Assembly: GCA_043803805.1 (NCBI GenBank) | Contig: JAZDJP010000040.1 | Location: 1 to 23,350, forward strand | Reading direction: 5' to 3' | Source of the DNA: Planctomycetota bacterium | GTDB taxonomy: Bacteria > Planctomycetota > JAZDJP01 | Length of the DNA stretch: 23,350 nt | Shown here: positions 4,721-13,293 of the stretch, one piece after another | Layout of the letters: every line of letters begins with the position of its first letter | How positions within the stretch are numbered: position 1 is the first letter of the stretch | The notes under the pieces: generated by a model | What the model was told of the DNA's origin: nothing | The model's database searches: none | What the model saw: the letters and a program-made list of their open reading frames with translations, nothing else | Position numbers and translations under genes: made by a program

Positions 4721-4795
4721 TGCTGAGTACGAAGTTCTGAGTGCTGGGAACATCGTACAGGGGGGAGGGATAGTTGATAGTGAATAGTGGCCAGT

Positions 4796-4838
4796 AGGAA
4801 GTCGGCGAGTCCGCGAGTCGCCGAGTCGGAGAGTCGGC
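4796..4838. repeat. Tandem 8-bp NNNGAGTC array: GAGTC at 4807,4815,4823,4831 plus degenerate AAGTC at 4799, the opposite orientation to the 182-253 array
   Basis: Read directly from the sequence; followed by CTGAACT...TTTTCTGCGAG, a motif shared with the element at 8015-8049. Confidence 0.85.
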
Positions 4839-4941
4839 AACCTCTCCAACTCCTGAACTCACGAACTTTTCTGCGAGATGCGGACGACGAGGAACGAGCG
4901 ACGAATCGGGCCGGGACTGCCAACCGGCCCTTCTTCGTAAC

Positions 4942-5622: not shown

Positions 5623-5640
5623 GATTTCCCTCCCAACAAT

Positions 5641-5669
5641 GCAGGGGCGGGTTTGAAACCCGCCCCTAC
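5641..5669. repeat. 29-nt near-perfect palindrome GCAGGGGCGGGTTTGAAACCCGCCCCTAC with a 14-bp GC-rich stem and one mismatch in the left arm; REP-like element or terminator
   Basis: Read directly from the sequence; overlaps the stop codon (5666-5668) of the ankyrin gene; belongs to the same family as 6874-6901 and 11702-11730. Confidence 0.8.
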
Positions 5670-7953: not shown

Positions 7954-8095
7954 GAGTCTGGAGAGTCCGCGAGTCGGCGAGTCAGGGAGTCTACCCCCCT
8001 CCCCCCTGAACTTTCCACCTCTCTGACTCCGTCGGTTTTTCTGCGAGTCACAGGCCACAGGTCCGGGACTCGGTGACTCGAAGACTCACCGACTA
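7954..8095. repeat. Inverted pair of 8-bp-unit arrays: GAGTC x5 (7954,7963,7971,7979,7987) and GACTC x3 plus a degenerate unit (8067,8075,8083,8091), separated by about 75 bp that contains a CCCCCCTCCCCCCTGAACT...TTTTCTGCGAGTC motif
   Basis: Read directly from the sequence. It sits between the stop of the methyltransferase-PDZ gene (8100) and the ThyA-like start (7905), so it occupies the ThyA-like promoter region. Confidence 0.85.
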
Positions 8096-8099
8096 CTTC

Positions 8100-9325: not shown

Positions 9326-12300
9326 CTAGTCCGTGCGCTCGACCTTCGCGGTGGCCGTCCTTACCAGCGCCGCCTTGCCGGAACCGTCCCAGAACCGCAG
9401 CGCGGCAACCACCTCGGCGCCCACCTTCAGGTACGGGCCATCGCGCGTGACGAGCTCGACAACGAGTTTTTTACCGGCATGGACGGTGATGGTATCCCGG
9501 GCCTTGGGGTCCTCTCCCGGAAAGAACTTGCCATTGTTTCCCACGGTCGCGACGTGCATGTTCCAGGAGAGATTGACGTCCTTCTTGCCGGCGGAGTTGT
9601 CCAACTCCACGGCCACCTTGGCGTGGAGCGGCGAGCCGCCGTCGGGGCCGGGATTGTCCACGACGGGCATCCAGTCGCGCCAGAAGTAGACGTCCCCGGT
9701 CTTAATCTTGCAGTCGCCAACGGCCTCCCCGCGCTGGAGCACCACCTCGGCCCTGCCCGGCTCGACGATCTCGATTTCCACGGGGCCGGTGGTGACCTTG
9801 CCGTTCCAGAATGCGGTCCCCGCTTGCGGAACGTCGCAAGCCGCGGTCATGACGTACTTGCCGGGCGGCAGGGACTTCGACAAGATGTTTTTCCCCTCCT
9901 CGCCGACGTTCCAGAACTCACACATCAACAACGCCTGCGCTTTTTCACCGGCCTGTAAATTCACATCGGGGCGGAGAGGCATCGGCTTCGGCGGCGGGTG
10001 AATGCTCGCCGTGTACGTTTTCTTGCTTTCTTGCGCGACAAGACGCACTTTCCAACTCCATGTGTCAAGCACCCAACCCGGCAGTTTTATGGGCTGATTT
10101 CCCGCGTTCATGAGACAAGCATCCATCACAACCGGCTTCCCGGCCTCGAACTTCGCCTGCTTGGCCGACAGCCCCGCTTGGAGGCCGTTCACCGCCGAGC
10201 CCCAGGAAATGTTTTCAGCCTCCTTTCCACCCTTTTCTATCCGAATCGTCCAGACGTTTGAACTGACTTTTCCGCGAATCTGACGGATTCTATATTCGCC
10301 GGGTTTTTCGAATGAAAAAAAAGTTGAAAGAGGGATAACAAGAGTTTGTTCCTGCCCCGACGCCAGGGAGTAGCGAGTGTTGACGATATGGTTGGCGATA
10401 CGGCCCTTCACGGCTTTCCCATCAGGACCGATGACTTCCAACAACGCCGCGTTAAATGCTCCGAGGTAGAGATTTTCCTGAACATCTTCTTGGTCCATTT
10501 GCTCGAAATGGCCGACGTCCTGTATGGCTTCCTTGCCGCCGTTTCTTACGCCAAGTGTGACTTTGATGACCTCGTTCGGTGCGTATTCCGTCTTTTCCGA
10601 CCAGACGCCGCATTGAAGCCCCGCGTTCAGCCCGACCGACGCCTGGCCCCAGGAGATGTTGTCCTTCGGCACCGTCGATTTCGCGCCGCTTTTATCCCTG
10701 ACCTCGATCCTGATTGAACCGGTCTCCACCGCACCCGTCCATGCGGGAACGAGGTTCTGGGGCACGACCCTGACGTGTTTTCGCGTGTCGCCTCCCCATT
10801 GATATTTCGCTTTGACAAGGTACTCTCCTGCCGGCAAGGCATCGACATCAATCTTGGCGCCCGCAGGGGAGTTCCCGATTTTCCAGAATCCGCCGACCTC
10901 GCCAAAAACGATGGTCTCGATTTTCCGATCCTTCTTTTCGAATTCGCCAAGAGAAATATCTTCCCCTCCCGCCGACTTCGTCCAGTAGTAGATTTCTTTC
11001 CTTTCCCCGGATTCAAACGAGAGCGCGAACCGGTCCGGATGGTCCCAAGCATCCAGCCGGAGCGCTTTTCCCCCCGTATTTTCAAAATGAATAGCGAAAT
11101 TCATGGATTCGCCGGCCCTGAATACGTTTTGTCCTGCGGTTGCGATCCCCGCCTGCAGGCCGTTGACGGGCTGGCCCCAAGAAATGTTTTCAGCCTCCTT
11201 TCCACCCTTGGTCTGAATTTCAACCGCTGGTGAGCCGGCCTCGCCTATCCAGACTCCTTCCTTGCGGAGTTTTTCCAAGTACGCAACCGCCTCCGCCTTA
11301 TTGGCCTCGGTGTTCTCAACAAGGGAGTCCAGCGTCAGGGCGTACCGGAATCGCACCGCGCGGGCCCTTGCCTCCGGCGCGGCGCCGAAGAATTCCTTGA
11401 GAGAGCCCGACGAAAGCGCCGCGGTTTCCCCCGGCGCGATGATTTTGCGCTTGCCGTCGTAGATGCCGGCGTCGAGCACCGCGAGTTCTCCAGTTTTGTA
11501 GCTGAGCCCCTGACGTACGACCGCCCCCTTCTCGTCCACGAGTTCCCAGCCGGAGGAACCCCGATAGGTGCAGAGCGTCACGGGTTTGTCACCCTCGTTT
11601 CTGACAAATGCCCCGGCGCGCAATCCGTCTCGGTCTTTCGTCAACCGGACGCCAACAGACAGGCCGTTGACCGGCTGGCCCCAGGAAATGCCGTCGTTTA
11701 CGGGTGAATCCGTAGGGGCGGGTTTCAAACCCGCCCCTACATTGTCGGTTTTTTTCGTGACGTCCTCGCCCGCCCTGCACCCCGCCACCACCACCGCCAT
11801 TGCGAGAAACACCATTCCTGTGAATCCCAGCATCCAGGTATTCATCCGCGTCACAAGACGCCTCCTTTCGTCAAGAATTCCTTTCACACGCTCCTCAAGA
11901 TTCCACCGGGGATGCACGAGGCCCACCGCCGCCGGTGTGCGGTGGAAGATGCTCGTCTTCTCCGCGAGATCCAAGAGCATTTTGGCGTAACCCGGCGCGT
12001 TCCCCCGCCGCAATACATAATTGTCGCACACCTCCTCGCGGGCGCGGGCGAGTTCGCCGTTTGCCTTCCAGACAAACGGATGCCACCAGAACACGACTTC
12101 CGCGATGCGCTGAAGAAGTCCCACCAGATGATCCCGCTGAAGAACGTGGGCGCATTCGTGGACGAGAATATCGCGAAGTTCCACCGGACCGAGAAGTCCC
12201 GCCACCGGCGTCGGAAGCAAAATCATCGGCCGCGTGATGCCGAAACAGATCGGCCCCGTGATCTGCCCCGACATGCCGATCGGAGGAAGCGCGCGGACGC

Positions 12301-12880
12301 CGAGCGCATTTTTCACATCCGCCAGGACGGGCCCCATCTCGTCGTCATCCAGCGGGATGGCGCTTGTCCGGAGCGCCGTCTGGACTCCAAAACCATGAAT
12401 CAGACGAACCAGCATGACAAGAACTCCCCCCGCCCAGACGAGAAAAACGCCGCACACCGCGGCCCGAATCCGGTCCGCTCGGGAAAGCGGCGGCGACGCG
12501 GGTTTCACGGGCGTCGCCGGCGCGGTCTCCGCGCGGACGACCGGCGCCGGATGCGGGGAGACCGGGATGACGGGTTCCGAAACGGTTTGGATCGACGTCG
12601 CCGGTGCGGCCGCCGCCGGTGGGGAAACAGGTTTCTCCCTCAAGAAAGGAAGAGTAAACGTCGTGATCCCCGCCGCCTCCGCCACCACCGACACCAGCGG
12701 CGCGAGAAGCACCACCGCCAGGGCCGACAGCCACAATCCGTAACGGACGGCCGCCCCCGCCCGGCGGAAAATCCGGGAAAGCATCCAGGCCAGAGCCACC
12801 ACCACCGTGACCTGGATCAACGCATTCATCGCGGCGAGCGCCGCGGCGTCACCAAGATAAAATCGGAGAAGCGTCCTCAT
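9326..12880 (-). CDS. blaR1: BlaR1/MecR1-family M56 peptidase signal transducer (anti-repressor) with a very large C-terminal extracytoplasmic sensor built from about four tandem repeats, each of about 190 aa, carrying an ISWGQPVNGL motif
   Basis: N-terminal TM helices and the zinc-metalloprotease motif VHECAHVLQRDH characteristic of BlaR1; a further TM at about aa 350; the repeats contain DGISWGQPVNGL, ENISWGQPVNGLQAG, DNISWGQASVGLNAG and ENISWGSAVNGLQAG. The gene overlaps the upstream blaI-family gene by 4 nt (ATGA). Confidence 0.85.
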   Translation of the reverse strand: MRTLLRFYLGDAAALAAMNALIQVTVVVALAWMLSRIFRRAGAAVRYGLWLSALAVVLLAPLVSVVAEAAGITTFTLPFLREKPVSPPAAAAPATSIQTVSEPVIPVSPHPAPVVRAETAPATPVKPASPPLSRADRIRAAVCGVFLVWAGGVLVMLVRLIHGFGVQTALRTSAIPLDDDEMGPVLADVKNALGVRALPPIGMSGQITGPICFGITRPMILLPTPVAGLLGPVELRDILVHECAHVLQRDHLVGLLQRIAEVVFWWHPFVWKANGELARAREEVCDNYVLRRGNAPGYAKMLLDLAEKTSIFHRTPAAVGLVHPRWNLEERVKGILDERRRLVTRMNTWMLGFTGMVFLAMAVVVAGCRAGEDVTKKTDNVGAGLKPAPTDSPVNDGISWGQPVNGLSVGVRLTKDRDGLRAGAFVRNEGDKPVTLCTYRGSSGWELVDEKGAVVRQGLSYKTGELAVLDAGIYDGKRKIIAPGETAALSSGSLKEFFGAAPEARARAVRFRYALTLDSLVENTEANKAEAVAYLEKLRKEGVWIGEAGSPAVEIQTKGGKEAENISWGQPVNGLQAGIATAGQNVFRAGESMNFAIHFENTGGKALRLDAWDHPDRFALSFESGERKEIYYWTKSAGGEDISLGEFEKKDRKIETIVFGEVGGFWKIGNSPAGAKIDVDALPAGEYLVKAKYQWGGDTRKHVRVVPQNLVPAWTGAVETGSIRIEVRDKSGAKSTVPKDNISWGQASVGLNAGLQCGVWSEKTEYAPNEVIKVTLGVRNGGKEAIQDVGHFEQMDQEDVQENLYLGAFNAALLEVIGPDGKAVKGRIANHIVNTRYSLASGQEQTLVIPLSTFFSFEKPGEYRIRQIRGKVSSNVWTIRIEKGGKEAENISWGSAVNGLQAGLSAKQAKFEAGKPVVMDACLMNAGNQPIKLPGWVLDTWSWKVRLVAQESKKTYTASIHPPPKPMPLRPDVNLQAGEKAQALLMCEFWNVGEEGKNILSKSLPPGKYVMTAACDVPQAGTAFWNGKVTTGPVEIEIVEPGRAEVVLQRGEAVGDCKIKTGDVYFWRDWMPVVDNPGPDGGSPLHAKVAVELDNSAGKKDVNLSWNMHVATVGNNGKFFPGEDPKARDTITVHAGKKLVVELVTRDGPYLKVGAEVVAALRFWDGSGKAALVRTATAKVERTD
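10183..10234. repeat. Intragenic DNA repeat, copy 1 (52 nt; the last 34 nt are nearly identical to 11175-11208)
   Basis: GGCCGTTCACCGCCGAGCCCCAGGAAATGTTTTCAGCCTCCTTTCCACCCTT matches 11157-11208 with about 6 mismatches, and the 3-prime 34 nt differ at a single position. It encodes the KGGKEAENISWGQ segment of a sensor repeat. Confidence 0.7.
11157..11208. repeat. Intragenic DNA repeat, copy 2 (paired with 10183-10234)
   Basis: See copy 1. Weaker, more diverged copies occur near 10621-10660 and 11671-11700. Confidence 0.7.
11702..11730. repeat. 29-nt perfect palindrome GTAGGGGCGGGTTTCAAACCCGCCCCTAC located in frame inside the blaR1-like ORF, where it encodes the GAGLKPAPT linker segment
   Basis: Exact self-reverse-complement with a 14-bp stem; same family as 5641-5669 (opposite loop orientation) and 6874-6901. 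Confidence 0.8.
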
Positions 12881-13275
12881 GCGCGTTTCCTCCCCTTCTC
12901 GGCCGTGTCAATGAGTTTCCGGATGCGCGTGGTCTCCTCGGAGGTGAGATTCTCCCCGTCCACGAGGGCCGCCACGAGCCCCGACGCGGATCCCGCGAAG
13001 ACGGTCCGCACGAGACGCGACACGATCCCCCCCAAGGCCTGTTTGCGTTCGGTGGCCGCGGAATACACAAAACTGTTCCGCACCGCCCGACGAACCAGCC
13101 ACCCCCGTTCTTCGAGGCGCGTCATGTGAGTGAGGACGGTGTTCCGGGCCACCGGCCGCCGGGCGCGCAGAACATCCCAGACGTCCGCGACCGACGCCTC
13201 CCGGCGTTCCCAGATCACGTTCATGATCTCGAGTTGTCCGGGAGAAAGGGTTTCCGTGGAAGACATTCGGCCCAT
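12877..13275 (-). CDS. blaI: BlaI/MecI/CopY-family (penicillinase repressor) winged-helix transcriptional repressor
   Basis: N-terminus LSPGQLEIMNVIWERREASVADVWDVLRARRPVARNTVLTHMTRLEERGWL has the typical BlaI DNA-binding domain, followed by a C-terminal dimerisation region. SD GGAGG lies 6 nt upstream of ATG 13273-13275, and the stop overlaps the blaR1 start. Confidence 0.85.
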   Translation of the reverse strand: MGRMSSTETLSPGQLEIMNVIWERREASVADVWDVLRARRPVARNTVLTHMTRLEERGWLVRRAVRNSFVYSAATERKQALGGIVSRLVRTVFAGSASGLVAALVDGENLTSEETTRIRKLIDTAEKGRKRA

Positions 13276-13293
13276 GCGAGACCTCCTTCTCAA

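Follow-up and report, generated by a model that had tools for sequence, protein, structure and literature searches.

Tandem GAGTC octamer arrays in a Planctomycetota contig and convergent tandem arrays around PF05635 genes

Tandem arrays of the pentamer GAGTC, repeated every 8 bp, occupy three intergenic spaces of contig JAZDJP010000040.1, which belongs to a Planctomycetota metagenome-assembled genome (GCA_043803805.1). What kind of element are they? The window analyzed here is this whole contig of 23,350 bp, and the searches for further copies were confined to it. A preliminary description made from the nucleotides alone had noticed that the array downstream of the flotillin operon (locus B, 4796-4890) resembles another one at 7954-8095 (locus C), and had taken both for parts of a composite modular element, mobile or recombining rather than a set of operator sites. 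Here we show that B and C represent one composite dispersed repeat in two diverged copies, C being the better preserved, and that convergent arrays of 8-bp units are a recurrent type of element that brackets genes of the PF05635 family in many phyla. A connection between the two is proposed more tentatively.

Two copies of one composite repeat

When aligned with MAFFT, positions 4799-4937 of B and 7955-8099 of C were colinear over ~140 nt, with 72% column identity. Both contain four array units, with an identical CCGCGAGTCG among them, followed (in C only) by a 14-nt C-rich insertion, ~40 nt of looser similarity, the motif TTTTCTGCGAG and finally CCGGGACT, the start of a distal inverted arm of which B keeps only a remnant. 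They also have CCTGAACT in common, the interior order being CCTGAACT...TTTTCTGCGAG...CCGGGACT. The differences between them are indels and a G/C-rich block found in another place and orientation: CAGGGGGGAGGG stands upstream of the array in B (4758, + strand) and, reverse-complemented, downstream of it in C (7997-8008, - strand), and these are its only two exact copies in the window. TTTTCTGCGAG has exactly two copies as well, at 4867 and 8037. After masking the arrays, the flanks of B and C still had a longest common word of 12 (reached by 5 of 1000 dinucleotide shuffles), 11 common 8-mers and 5 common 10-mers (0 of 1000 shuffles in both cases). Since the alignment is colinear over ~140 nt, B and C must be considered two copies of one composite element. 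To this extent the preliminary description was right: GAGTC is found on the + strand exactly at 4807, 4815, 4823 and 4831, CTGAACTCACGAACTTTTCTGCGAG follows array B (4853-4877), C carries CCTGAACTTTCC...GGTTTTTCTGCGAGTC (from 8005 and at 8034-8049), the module made of CCTGAACT, TTTTCTGCGAG and inverted CAGGGGGGAGGG is common to both loci, and the layout of a direct followed by an inverted array recurs in other genomes.

Other parts of that description have to be modified. CTGAACT, presented as a separate flanking module, falls within degenerate inverted units that keep the 8-bp register (4840, 4848, 4856 and 4864); positions 4840-4871 read ACCTCTCC, AACTCCTG, AACTCACG and AACTTTTC, four units in the opposite orientation, so that the module belongs to the repeat architecture and not to foreign flanking DNA. 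The proposal of a modular and mobile or recombining element holds only as far as a modular dispersed repeat is concerned. Both copies are on the + strand although the flanking genes are on the + strand at B and on the - strand at C, which fits a dispersed modular element better than a promoter or operator fixed to one strand. Mobility itself found no backing: no direct repeat that could represent a target-site duplication was found at the flanks of C (GCCGCCCCAT ... CTTCTTACCA) or of B, Pfam searches found no transposase or recombinase in the 23-kb contig, and no evidence of recent movement of B or C was seen in the window, which holds only two copies of this type, ~72% identical. A KOPS-like polarity (FtsK-orienting) was also considered for the GGGGAGGG block and dropped, since its copies are on both strands.

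Array A, close to the beginning of the contig, is taken for a third and more divergent copy. In the same shuffle test its flanks had no significant similarity to those of B or C. The 5' boundary of B (TGAAT.GTGG..A.T.GGAAGTC) resembles the boundary of array A, a resemblance that is not significant outside the arrays.

Anatomy of the array loci

GAGTC is not enriched in the window (39 occurrences versus 48 expected), but 20 of the 39 are inside the three intergenic arrays, a clustering far above chance. All these 20 units are exact GAGTC, while the 3-nt spacers never repeat within one array (8 distinct spacers in A, 4 in B and 4 in C). Element B is an intergenic repeat of ~160 bp (roughly 4758-4930), and the region originally singled out, 4796-4890, is its middle. 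The features of the three loci are as follows.

117-184, - strand: tail of element A, with the G-block GGGGAGGGAATGGGGGAATAGGG (184-162), a 34-nt loop and the inverted partner CCCCTCCCGAC (127-117)
185-253, - strand: array A, eight perfect GAGTC and one AAGTC at an exact 8-bp period, 8 of 8 spacers different; it starts ~14 nt past the stop codon of a TPR-like gene
4758-4769, + strand: G-rich 12-mer CAGGGGGGAGGG upstream of array B, exact reverse complement in locus C
4770-4798, + strand: decayed leading units of B, ATAGTTG ATAGTGA ATAGTGG CCAGTAGG, with AGT at ~7-bp steps, direct reading
4799-4835, + strand: direct arm of B, degenerate AAGTC at 4799 and GAGTC at 4807, 4815, 4823 and 4831, exact 8-bp period; spacers GGC, CGC, GCC and GGA, all different
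4840-4868, - strand: proximal inverted arm of B, ACCTC 4840, AACTC 4848, AACTC 4856 and AACTT 4864, GAGTT-type units reversed
4853-4877: CTGAACTCACGAACTTTTCTGCGAG, within locus B
4867-4877, + strand: junction motif TTTTCTGCGAG of B, a T-run and a decayed direct unit GCGAGAT
4903-4919, - strand: remnant of the distal inverted arm of B, GAATC 4903 (in phase with the direct arm, 96 = 12x8), CCGGGACTG 4911-4919 and GACTG 4915
4908-4937, + strand: hairpin GGGCCGG-9 nt-CCGGCCC followed by TTCTTCG, just past element B (-21.7 kcal/mol, z = -2.0)
7954-7991, + strand: direct arm of C, five GAGTC, one 9-bp step and then 8-bp steps, spacers all different
7994-8008, + strand: C-rich block CCCCCCTCCCCCCTG, the 14-nt insertion relative to B, including the reverse complement of the B 12-mer
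from 8005: CCTGAACTTTCC, locus C
8009-8029, - strand: proximal degenerate inverted units of C, AACTT 8009, ACCTC 8017 and GACTC 8025
8034-8049: GGTTTTTCTGCGAGTC, locus C
8037-8049, + strand: junction of C, TTTTCTGCGAG then TC, which creates an isolated direct GAGTC at 8045
8063-8095, - strand: distal inverted arm of C, CCGGGACTC, GACTC at 8067, 8075 and 8083, then GACTA at 8091 (three perfect units and one degenerate)

In C, inverted terminal arrays flank a 75-bp core, giving an element of ~142 bp. Its inverted arm keeps the 8-bp register of the direct one (8067-7963 = 104 = 13x8), starts 4 nt past the stop codon of the methyltransferase-PDZ gene and aligns at its beginning with the CCGGGACTG remnant of B. 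Arms able to pair are present in C (7954-7991 and 8067-8095), weakly in B through the degenerate arm at 4840-4868, and weakly in A, where the single partner at 127-117 pairs with GGGGAGGGAATGGGGGAATAGGG in the predicted fold. At 3 of 3 loci the distance from the final same-strand unit to the start codon that follows is 115-119 nt (A 184->68, B 4836->4950, and in C the lone unit, 8025->7906).

Locus C also contains a weak terminator-like stem at 8023-8035 followed by a T-run, and the flotillin operon probably terminates at the hairpin of 4908-4937. The G-block directly after array A (162-184, - strand) has four G-tracts with loops of 1-4 nt, a canonical G-quadruplex motif. Rho-utilization (rut) sites, with UC every 8 nt, were considered and dropped, the RNA being rich in G.

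GAGTC arrays in other genomes

Four GAGTC at an 8-bp period, scanned for in one genome per species, were present in >117 stretches. The matches listed came from Acidobacteriota, Chloroflexota, Verrucomicrobiota, Gemmatimonadota, Cyanobacteria, Actinomycetota, Bacteroidota, the Candidate Phyla Radiation (Patescibacteria) and others, with arrays of up to 36 units (8-9 in the window). Among these, 66 of the 125 arrays were perfect repeats, i.e., about half were plain microsatellites. In viral contigs the number of 8-bp-period arrays was 49 for GAGTC versus 82, 45 and 39 for three control pentamers of the same composition, most of them perfect repeats, and these counts weaken the idea that the arrays are a universal GAGTC-specific signal.

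The arrangement of paired arrays was much more restricted. Whenever an array had an inverted partner within 150 bp the two were convergent, (GAGTCNNN)n followed by (NNNGACTC)m, with 31 such pairs (from 24 unrelated bacterial loci among the matches listed) against 0 divergent ones, and element C conforms to this rule. Convergent and divergent pairs would form the same duplex, so that orientation itself must matter. No paired GAGTC or control arrays appeared in any of the viral-contig sets. In Thermoanaerobaculia several convergent elements per genome were found directly past stop codons, with partly related loops, and there, as in Anaerolineae, the complementarity of the arms extends to the spacers. 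For unpaired arrays the notion that they always read in the sense of the upstream gene was not supported: among 100 of them in the matches listed, orientation relative to the neighboring gene ends, as given by a crude gene caller, was 25 versus 20, i.e., without bias.

PF05635 genes between arrays

The PF05635 family (S23p, the 23S rRNA intervening-sequence protein) comprises basic, pentameric four-helix-bundle proteins. In the Chloroflexota locus L092 convergent arrays of 16 and 6 units enclose a gene of this family, which takes up the space between them; it scored 39.3 bits against a Pfam gathering threshold of 33.8, and carries the names "23S rRNA-intervening sequence protein" and "four helix bundle protein". 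Its homologues P0203, P0204, P0216 and P0154, retrieved by exact protein look-up in three genomic contexts, were all array-bracketed, with GAGTC/GATTC or GAATC units upstream and the complementary GACTC/GAATC or GATTC units downstream. A search of the array loci with the PF05635 hidden Markov model (HMM) gave further genes (Pfam scores of 104-116 bits), all between tandem arrays:

L082, Acidobacteriia: GAGTC-type units around the PF05635 gene
L048, Bacteroidales: AAGTCAAC-type and GAGTT-type units
L025, Dolichospermum: (GGGTAAT)n upstream of the gene, (ATTACCC)m downstream

A sample that was blind to the arrays was obtained by tblastn of PF05635 against plasmids (n=8). Convergent arrays bracketed 6 of these 8 genes (Nostoc, Riemerella, Leptolyngbya, Picosynechococcus, Geminocystis and Azospirillum); one, from Pseudanabaena, had direct arrays on both sides and one, from Calothrix, had none. 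Cassettes of Binatia, NC10 and Pyrinomonadaceae were convergent as well. By inspection, flanking tandem arrays were present at 21 of 22 PF05635 genes and convergent ones at 18 of 22, with periods of 7-9 bp. The convergent ones are:

Chloroflexota (GA(G/T/A)TC octamers): L092, L337, L341, L342, L344
Acidobacteriota: L082, L364, L024
Bacteroidota: L048, L351
Cyanobacteria: L025, L350, L354, L355, L356
Binatia: L358
NC10: L360
Azospirillum: L352

Automatic scoring, which left out L024 and L367, found that 14 of 20 genes had an inverted flank complementarity matched by 0 of 200 shuffles, again at periods of 7-9 bp, three of the misses being due to imprecise gene coordinates. PF05635 scans of viral contigs gave no matches.

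The Azospirillum gene lies inside a 23S rRNA (535 bits to the bacterial large-subunit rRNA model). It is a classical intervening sequence (IVS), and its arms are themselves short tandem units; we read the classical IVS, excised by RNase III, as a member of the convergent tandem-array class. Most of the PF05635 cassettes examined lie outside rRNA. An IVS has been described as an S23p open reading frame (ORF) bordered by terminal inverted repeats, the stem of which is cut by RNase III, and is regarded as selfish, its mobility being hypothesized only and its origin unresolved (PMC4990558). In the Anaerolineae the gene-carrying cassette is found at a single site, with conserved synteny, among orthologues no more than 60-70% identical, and this suggests that it has stayed there for a long time and does not hop often. 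In the literature searched there was no account of GAGTC octamer arrays, and convergent tandem arrays were nowhere connected with PF05635 genes, IVS or the cyanobacterial short tandemly repeated repetitive sequences (STRR), nor were STRR connected with PF05635 or IVS.

Several other observations were made on these cassettes. Two NC10 loci from different samples (L360 and L362) encode an identical PF05635 protein and have downstream arrays of ~3 versus ~8 units, so that the arrays are length-polymorphic between strains. In the Pseudanabaena (L353) and Picosynechococcus (L355) plasmids the gene and its arrays interrupt CRISPR-Cas operons, separating cas6 from cas4 in one case and cas10 from cmr3 in the other. 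Many homologues are on contigs of 0.5-1.5 kb, as would be expected if flanking arrays break short-read assemblies. In the Chloroflexota loci L342, L337 and L344 the core varies among GAGTC, GATTC and GAATC, with the complementary variant in the opposite arm, and every unit is GANTC, the HinfI/CcrM-type methylation motif. Finally, L367 has small hairpins with GNRA-type tetraloops (CACCC-GTAA-GGGTG and similar) at 160-240 and 740-900, between TTTGAACT-type arrays.

Other features of the contig

According to Pfam searches, the gene content of the window is that of an ordinary chromosome:

Window genes (1): extracytoplasmic function (ECF)-type sigma-factor-like protein, beta-carbonic anhydrase, NfeD, flotillin, small membrane protein, ankyrin-repeat protein
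Window genes (2): thymidylate-synthase-like protein, S-adenosylmethionine (SAM)-dependent methyltransferase with a PDZ domain, BlaI/BlaR1 pair, glycoside hydrolases

The only candidate regulators encoded are BlaI and the ECF-type sigma-factor-like protein; no ribbon-helix-helix gene was found in the window, and searches of it for Rfam families, tRNA, tmRNA and rRNA were negative. Scans of the window for sigma-70 promoters and intrinsic terminators gave counts not above those of shuffles, with the proviso that the sigma-70 model may not fit Planctomycetota promoters. The nearest flotillin homologue (79% identity) is on a 1.9-kb contig without informative flank.

CTCAG/CTGAG is the most depleted pentamer of the window (3 observed versus 17.5 expected under a third-order Markov model), and GAGTC outside the arrays is modestly depleted (17 versus 30.7, 0.55 of expectation). 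Both depletions may reflect avoidance of restriction sites; the idea of the arrays as a restriction-site decoy was considered against the latter figure. A 37-nt repeat similar to repetitive extragenic palindromic (REP) sequences occurs at 5633-5669, directly after the stop of the ankyrin gene, and at 11712-11748, inside the long BlaR1-like ORF. The two copies are 95% complementary and have GTAG followed by a perfect palindrome (GTAGGGGCGGGTTTCAAACCCGCCCCTAC). Between 10170 and 11695, within the 1184-aa BlaR1 (peptidase M56) gene, there are four repeats ~450-530 bp apart (repeat families D1 and D4), indicating repeated protein domains. The BlaI repressor gene (12877-13293) is upstream of that of BlaR1.

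Discussion

What, then, are the arrays of the window? There are genomes in which gene-free arrays coexist with PF05635 cassettes built of the same unit (L003 and L341 in JBMOMR01, L021 and L092 in JBDRGC01), and the GAACT/AACTC unit type of the inverted arm of B recurs as arrays around PF05635 genes (L048b in the L048 locus, L364 and L367). By analogy, the window elements could be gene-free members or remnants of the convergent tandem-array class whose full form brackets a PF05635 gene, a reading to which we give not quite an even chance. An invariant core next to variable spacers, strict phasing and the fixed polarity of paired arrays suggest a sequence-specific multimeric reader, and in this respect the preliminary description was too quick in setting operator sites aside. 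In the mechanism that we propose, each 8-bp unit would be the recognition site of a sequence-specific factor that loads as a multimer, the candidate being the basic pentameric PF05635 protein. The arms, in transcripts or in a cruciform of the DNA, would form a long duplex with imperfect pairing, by which the flanking messages would be processed, terminated or insulated, and copies would spread by duplication or mobilization and then decay. A bolder version, which we regard as doubtful, would make the GAGTC (GANTC-type) octamer arrays the arms of small selfish cassettes present in multiple phyla, with the PF05635 gene inside the full form and the 23S rRNA IVS as one special case. The units would then be multimeric sites for the pentameric PF05635 protein or for some other reader peculiar to a lineage, and copies without a gene, among them the three of the window, would be scattered intergenically like miniature inverted-repeat transposable elements (MITEs).

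The 23S rRNA IVS with an S23p ORF (Leptospira, Coxiella, Xanthomonas, Azospirillum) is the closest known counterpart, being an insert bordered by pairable inverted ends that exists with and without a gene, has a sporadic distribution and is regarded as selfish; the arms in Azospirillum are short tandem units like the window arrays. Such insertions are located in helices 9, 25 or 45 of the rRNA, whereas the window elements lie between protein-coding genes with no rRNA in the window, have no ORF in their interior of ~70 bp, and have strict 8-bp GAGTC arms with non-complementary spacers. Cyanobacterial STRR are likewise intergenic tandem arrays (of 7-bp units), and the PF05635 gene of Dolichospermum is bracketed by heptamers, but their unit sequence and period differ from those of the window.

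A number of observations weigh against the proposed relationship. No PF05635 gene was found among the window ORFs of at least 40 aa with the PF05635 HMM, nor in the Pfam searches, and none of the cassettes examined is from Planctomycetota. The array unit differs between lineages, so that the link between window and cassettes rests on architecture and unit type and not on sequence homology. Four of the PF05635 genes are not convergently bracketed: L353 and L367 have direct arrays on both sides, the orientation is ambiguous in L048b, and L357 has no arrays. The next relatives that conserve the carbonic anhydrase-NfeD-flotillin synteny (identity of at most 70%) lack the arrays. The control pentamers, equally frequent in viral contigs, mean that the wide occurrence of GAGTC arrays does not by itself point to GAGTC. 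As for the pairing of arms, the predicted folds of B (z = +0.1) and A (z = -0.6) were no better than those of shuffles, and in C, the only one of the three loci that folds better than shuffles (-60 kcal/mol, z = -2.15), the complementarity of the arms is confined to the cores and does not extend to the spacers.

Four other explanations were weighed and are ranked, from more to less plausible, below the proposed relationship with the PF05635 cassettes. The arrays could be operators or iteron-like sites on which a DNA-binding protein polymerizes along GAGTC spaced by 8 bp and regulates the downstream gene, the similarity of the flanks reflecting shared promoter elements. Precedents are the ribbon-helix-helix repressors MetJ (8-bp met boxes) and omega (7-bp heptads, direct and inverted), together with head-to-tail binders such as BldC and Xis. 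Like the MetJ and omega operators, the window arrays consist of contiguous units of 7-8 bp that share a conserved core, vary in number and occur in direct as well as inverted arrangement; binding of this kind would explain the conservation of the core and the phasing, the 8-bp period is the binding geometry of MetJ, and the intergenic position of all three loci and the constant distance to the next start codon fit as well. We nevertheless consider this explanation unlikely. B and C are colinear on the + strand though the downstream genes are on opposite strands, those genes are functionally unrelated (a small membrane protein, a thymidylate-synthase-like protein and an unknown), regulators in the window are limited to BlaI and the ECF-type protein, promoter predictions do not exceed shuffles, and the unpaired arrays elsewhere have no bias in orientation. 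Moreover, the arrays reach 8-9 units here and up to 36 elsewhere, and the identical architecture can enclose a gene instead of preceding one. An explanation at the RNA level only, rather less plausible, would have stems in read-through transcripts acting as bidirectional terminators, RNase III sites or 3'-end stabilizers, similarly to REP sequences, with no protein reader. It would account for the start of the arrays 4-14 nt past stop codons in A and C, and past those of the Thermoanaerobaculia loci, for the long stem of C and for the complementary spacers in Thermoanaerobaculia and Anaerolineae, and IVS stems are RNase III substrates (PMC4990558). The window arrays share with REP, bacterial interspersed mosaic elements (BIME) and REP doublets forming hairpins (REPIN) the position directly after stop codons, the occurrence in either orientation, hairpin-forming inverted pairs and the many copies in some lineages. 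Yet a REP consists of one imperfect palindrome, 20-40 nt long and with GTAG at the 5' side, and is mobilized by a REP-associated tyrosine transposase (RAYT); the arrays here are tandem direct octamers. Since A and B fold no better than shuffles, pairing of the arms cannot be what maintains their arrays, and a structured RNA was rejected for these two loci on their z-scores. In C the cores are perfectly kept despite non-complementary spacers, which, together with the weak folds of A and B, means that pairing alone cannot keep GAGTC invariant; neither the conservation of core over spacer nor the convergent-only rule (31 versus 0) follows from pairing.

An active MITE, in which the arrays would be multi-site terminal inverted repeats for a transposase encoded elsewhere, as at the ends of IS607-family or hAT-family elements, appears improbable. 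The ~142-bp size of C, its inverted arms of repeated short motifs around a 75-bp core, the internal core that it has in common with B and the convergent-only orientation, which is a requirement of transposon ends, are all compatible with it, and IS607-family ends do contain several short direct repeats that are cooperatively bound by TnpA (PMC6188088). Against it, the window has neither target-site duplications, nor near-identical copies (B and C are merely ~72% alike), nor a cognate transposase, IS607 and hAT ends consist of 9-bp motifs at helical phasing while the window units abut every 8 bp, and in distant Anaerolineae a related cassette has kept its syntenic position. The two arms of C match solely in their 5-bp GAGTC cores, so that it is not a young MITE. 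The last explanation, that of neutral 8-bp microsatellites produced by replication slippage, with the flank similarity as a by-product of repetitive composition, is hardly credible and we disfavor it. Perfect 8-mer tandem repeats of any pentamer core are certainly common, about half of the listed GAGTC arrays (66 of 125) are perfect, and array length varies between strains (L360 versus L362). Slippage, however, copies whole units, and the near-identity over the whole unit length that is typical of variable-number tandem repeats is not seen here, where no spacer recurs within any window array while the core is invariant. Three arrays within 23 kb, and a similarity between B and C that runs through non-repetitive sequence (0 of 1000 shuffles), are also difficult to reconcile with it.

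Concluding remarks

IVS and S23p genes have been known for >30 years, and to our knowledge no function and no means of spread have been established for either; this holds for the cyanobacterial short tandem intergenic repeats too. The data presented here place PF05635 genes from at least seven phyla between tandem arrays with a period of 7-9 bp, mostly convergent. In practical terms, such arrays are a source of spurious ORFs and probably cause breaks in metagenome assemblies. The results also turn the vague concept of a "selfish element" into predictions: a reader specific for the units, with the PF05635 protein as candidate, processing of the RNase III type at the arms, and filled and empty sites among related strains. 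If the doubtful reading of the arrays as arms of selfish cassettes were true, it would bring the orphan S23p family, the IVS and, possibly, the STRR of cyanobacteria under one explanation.

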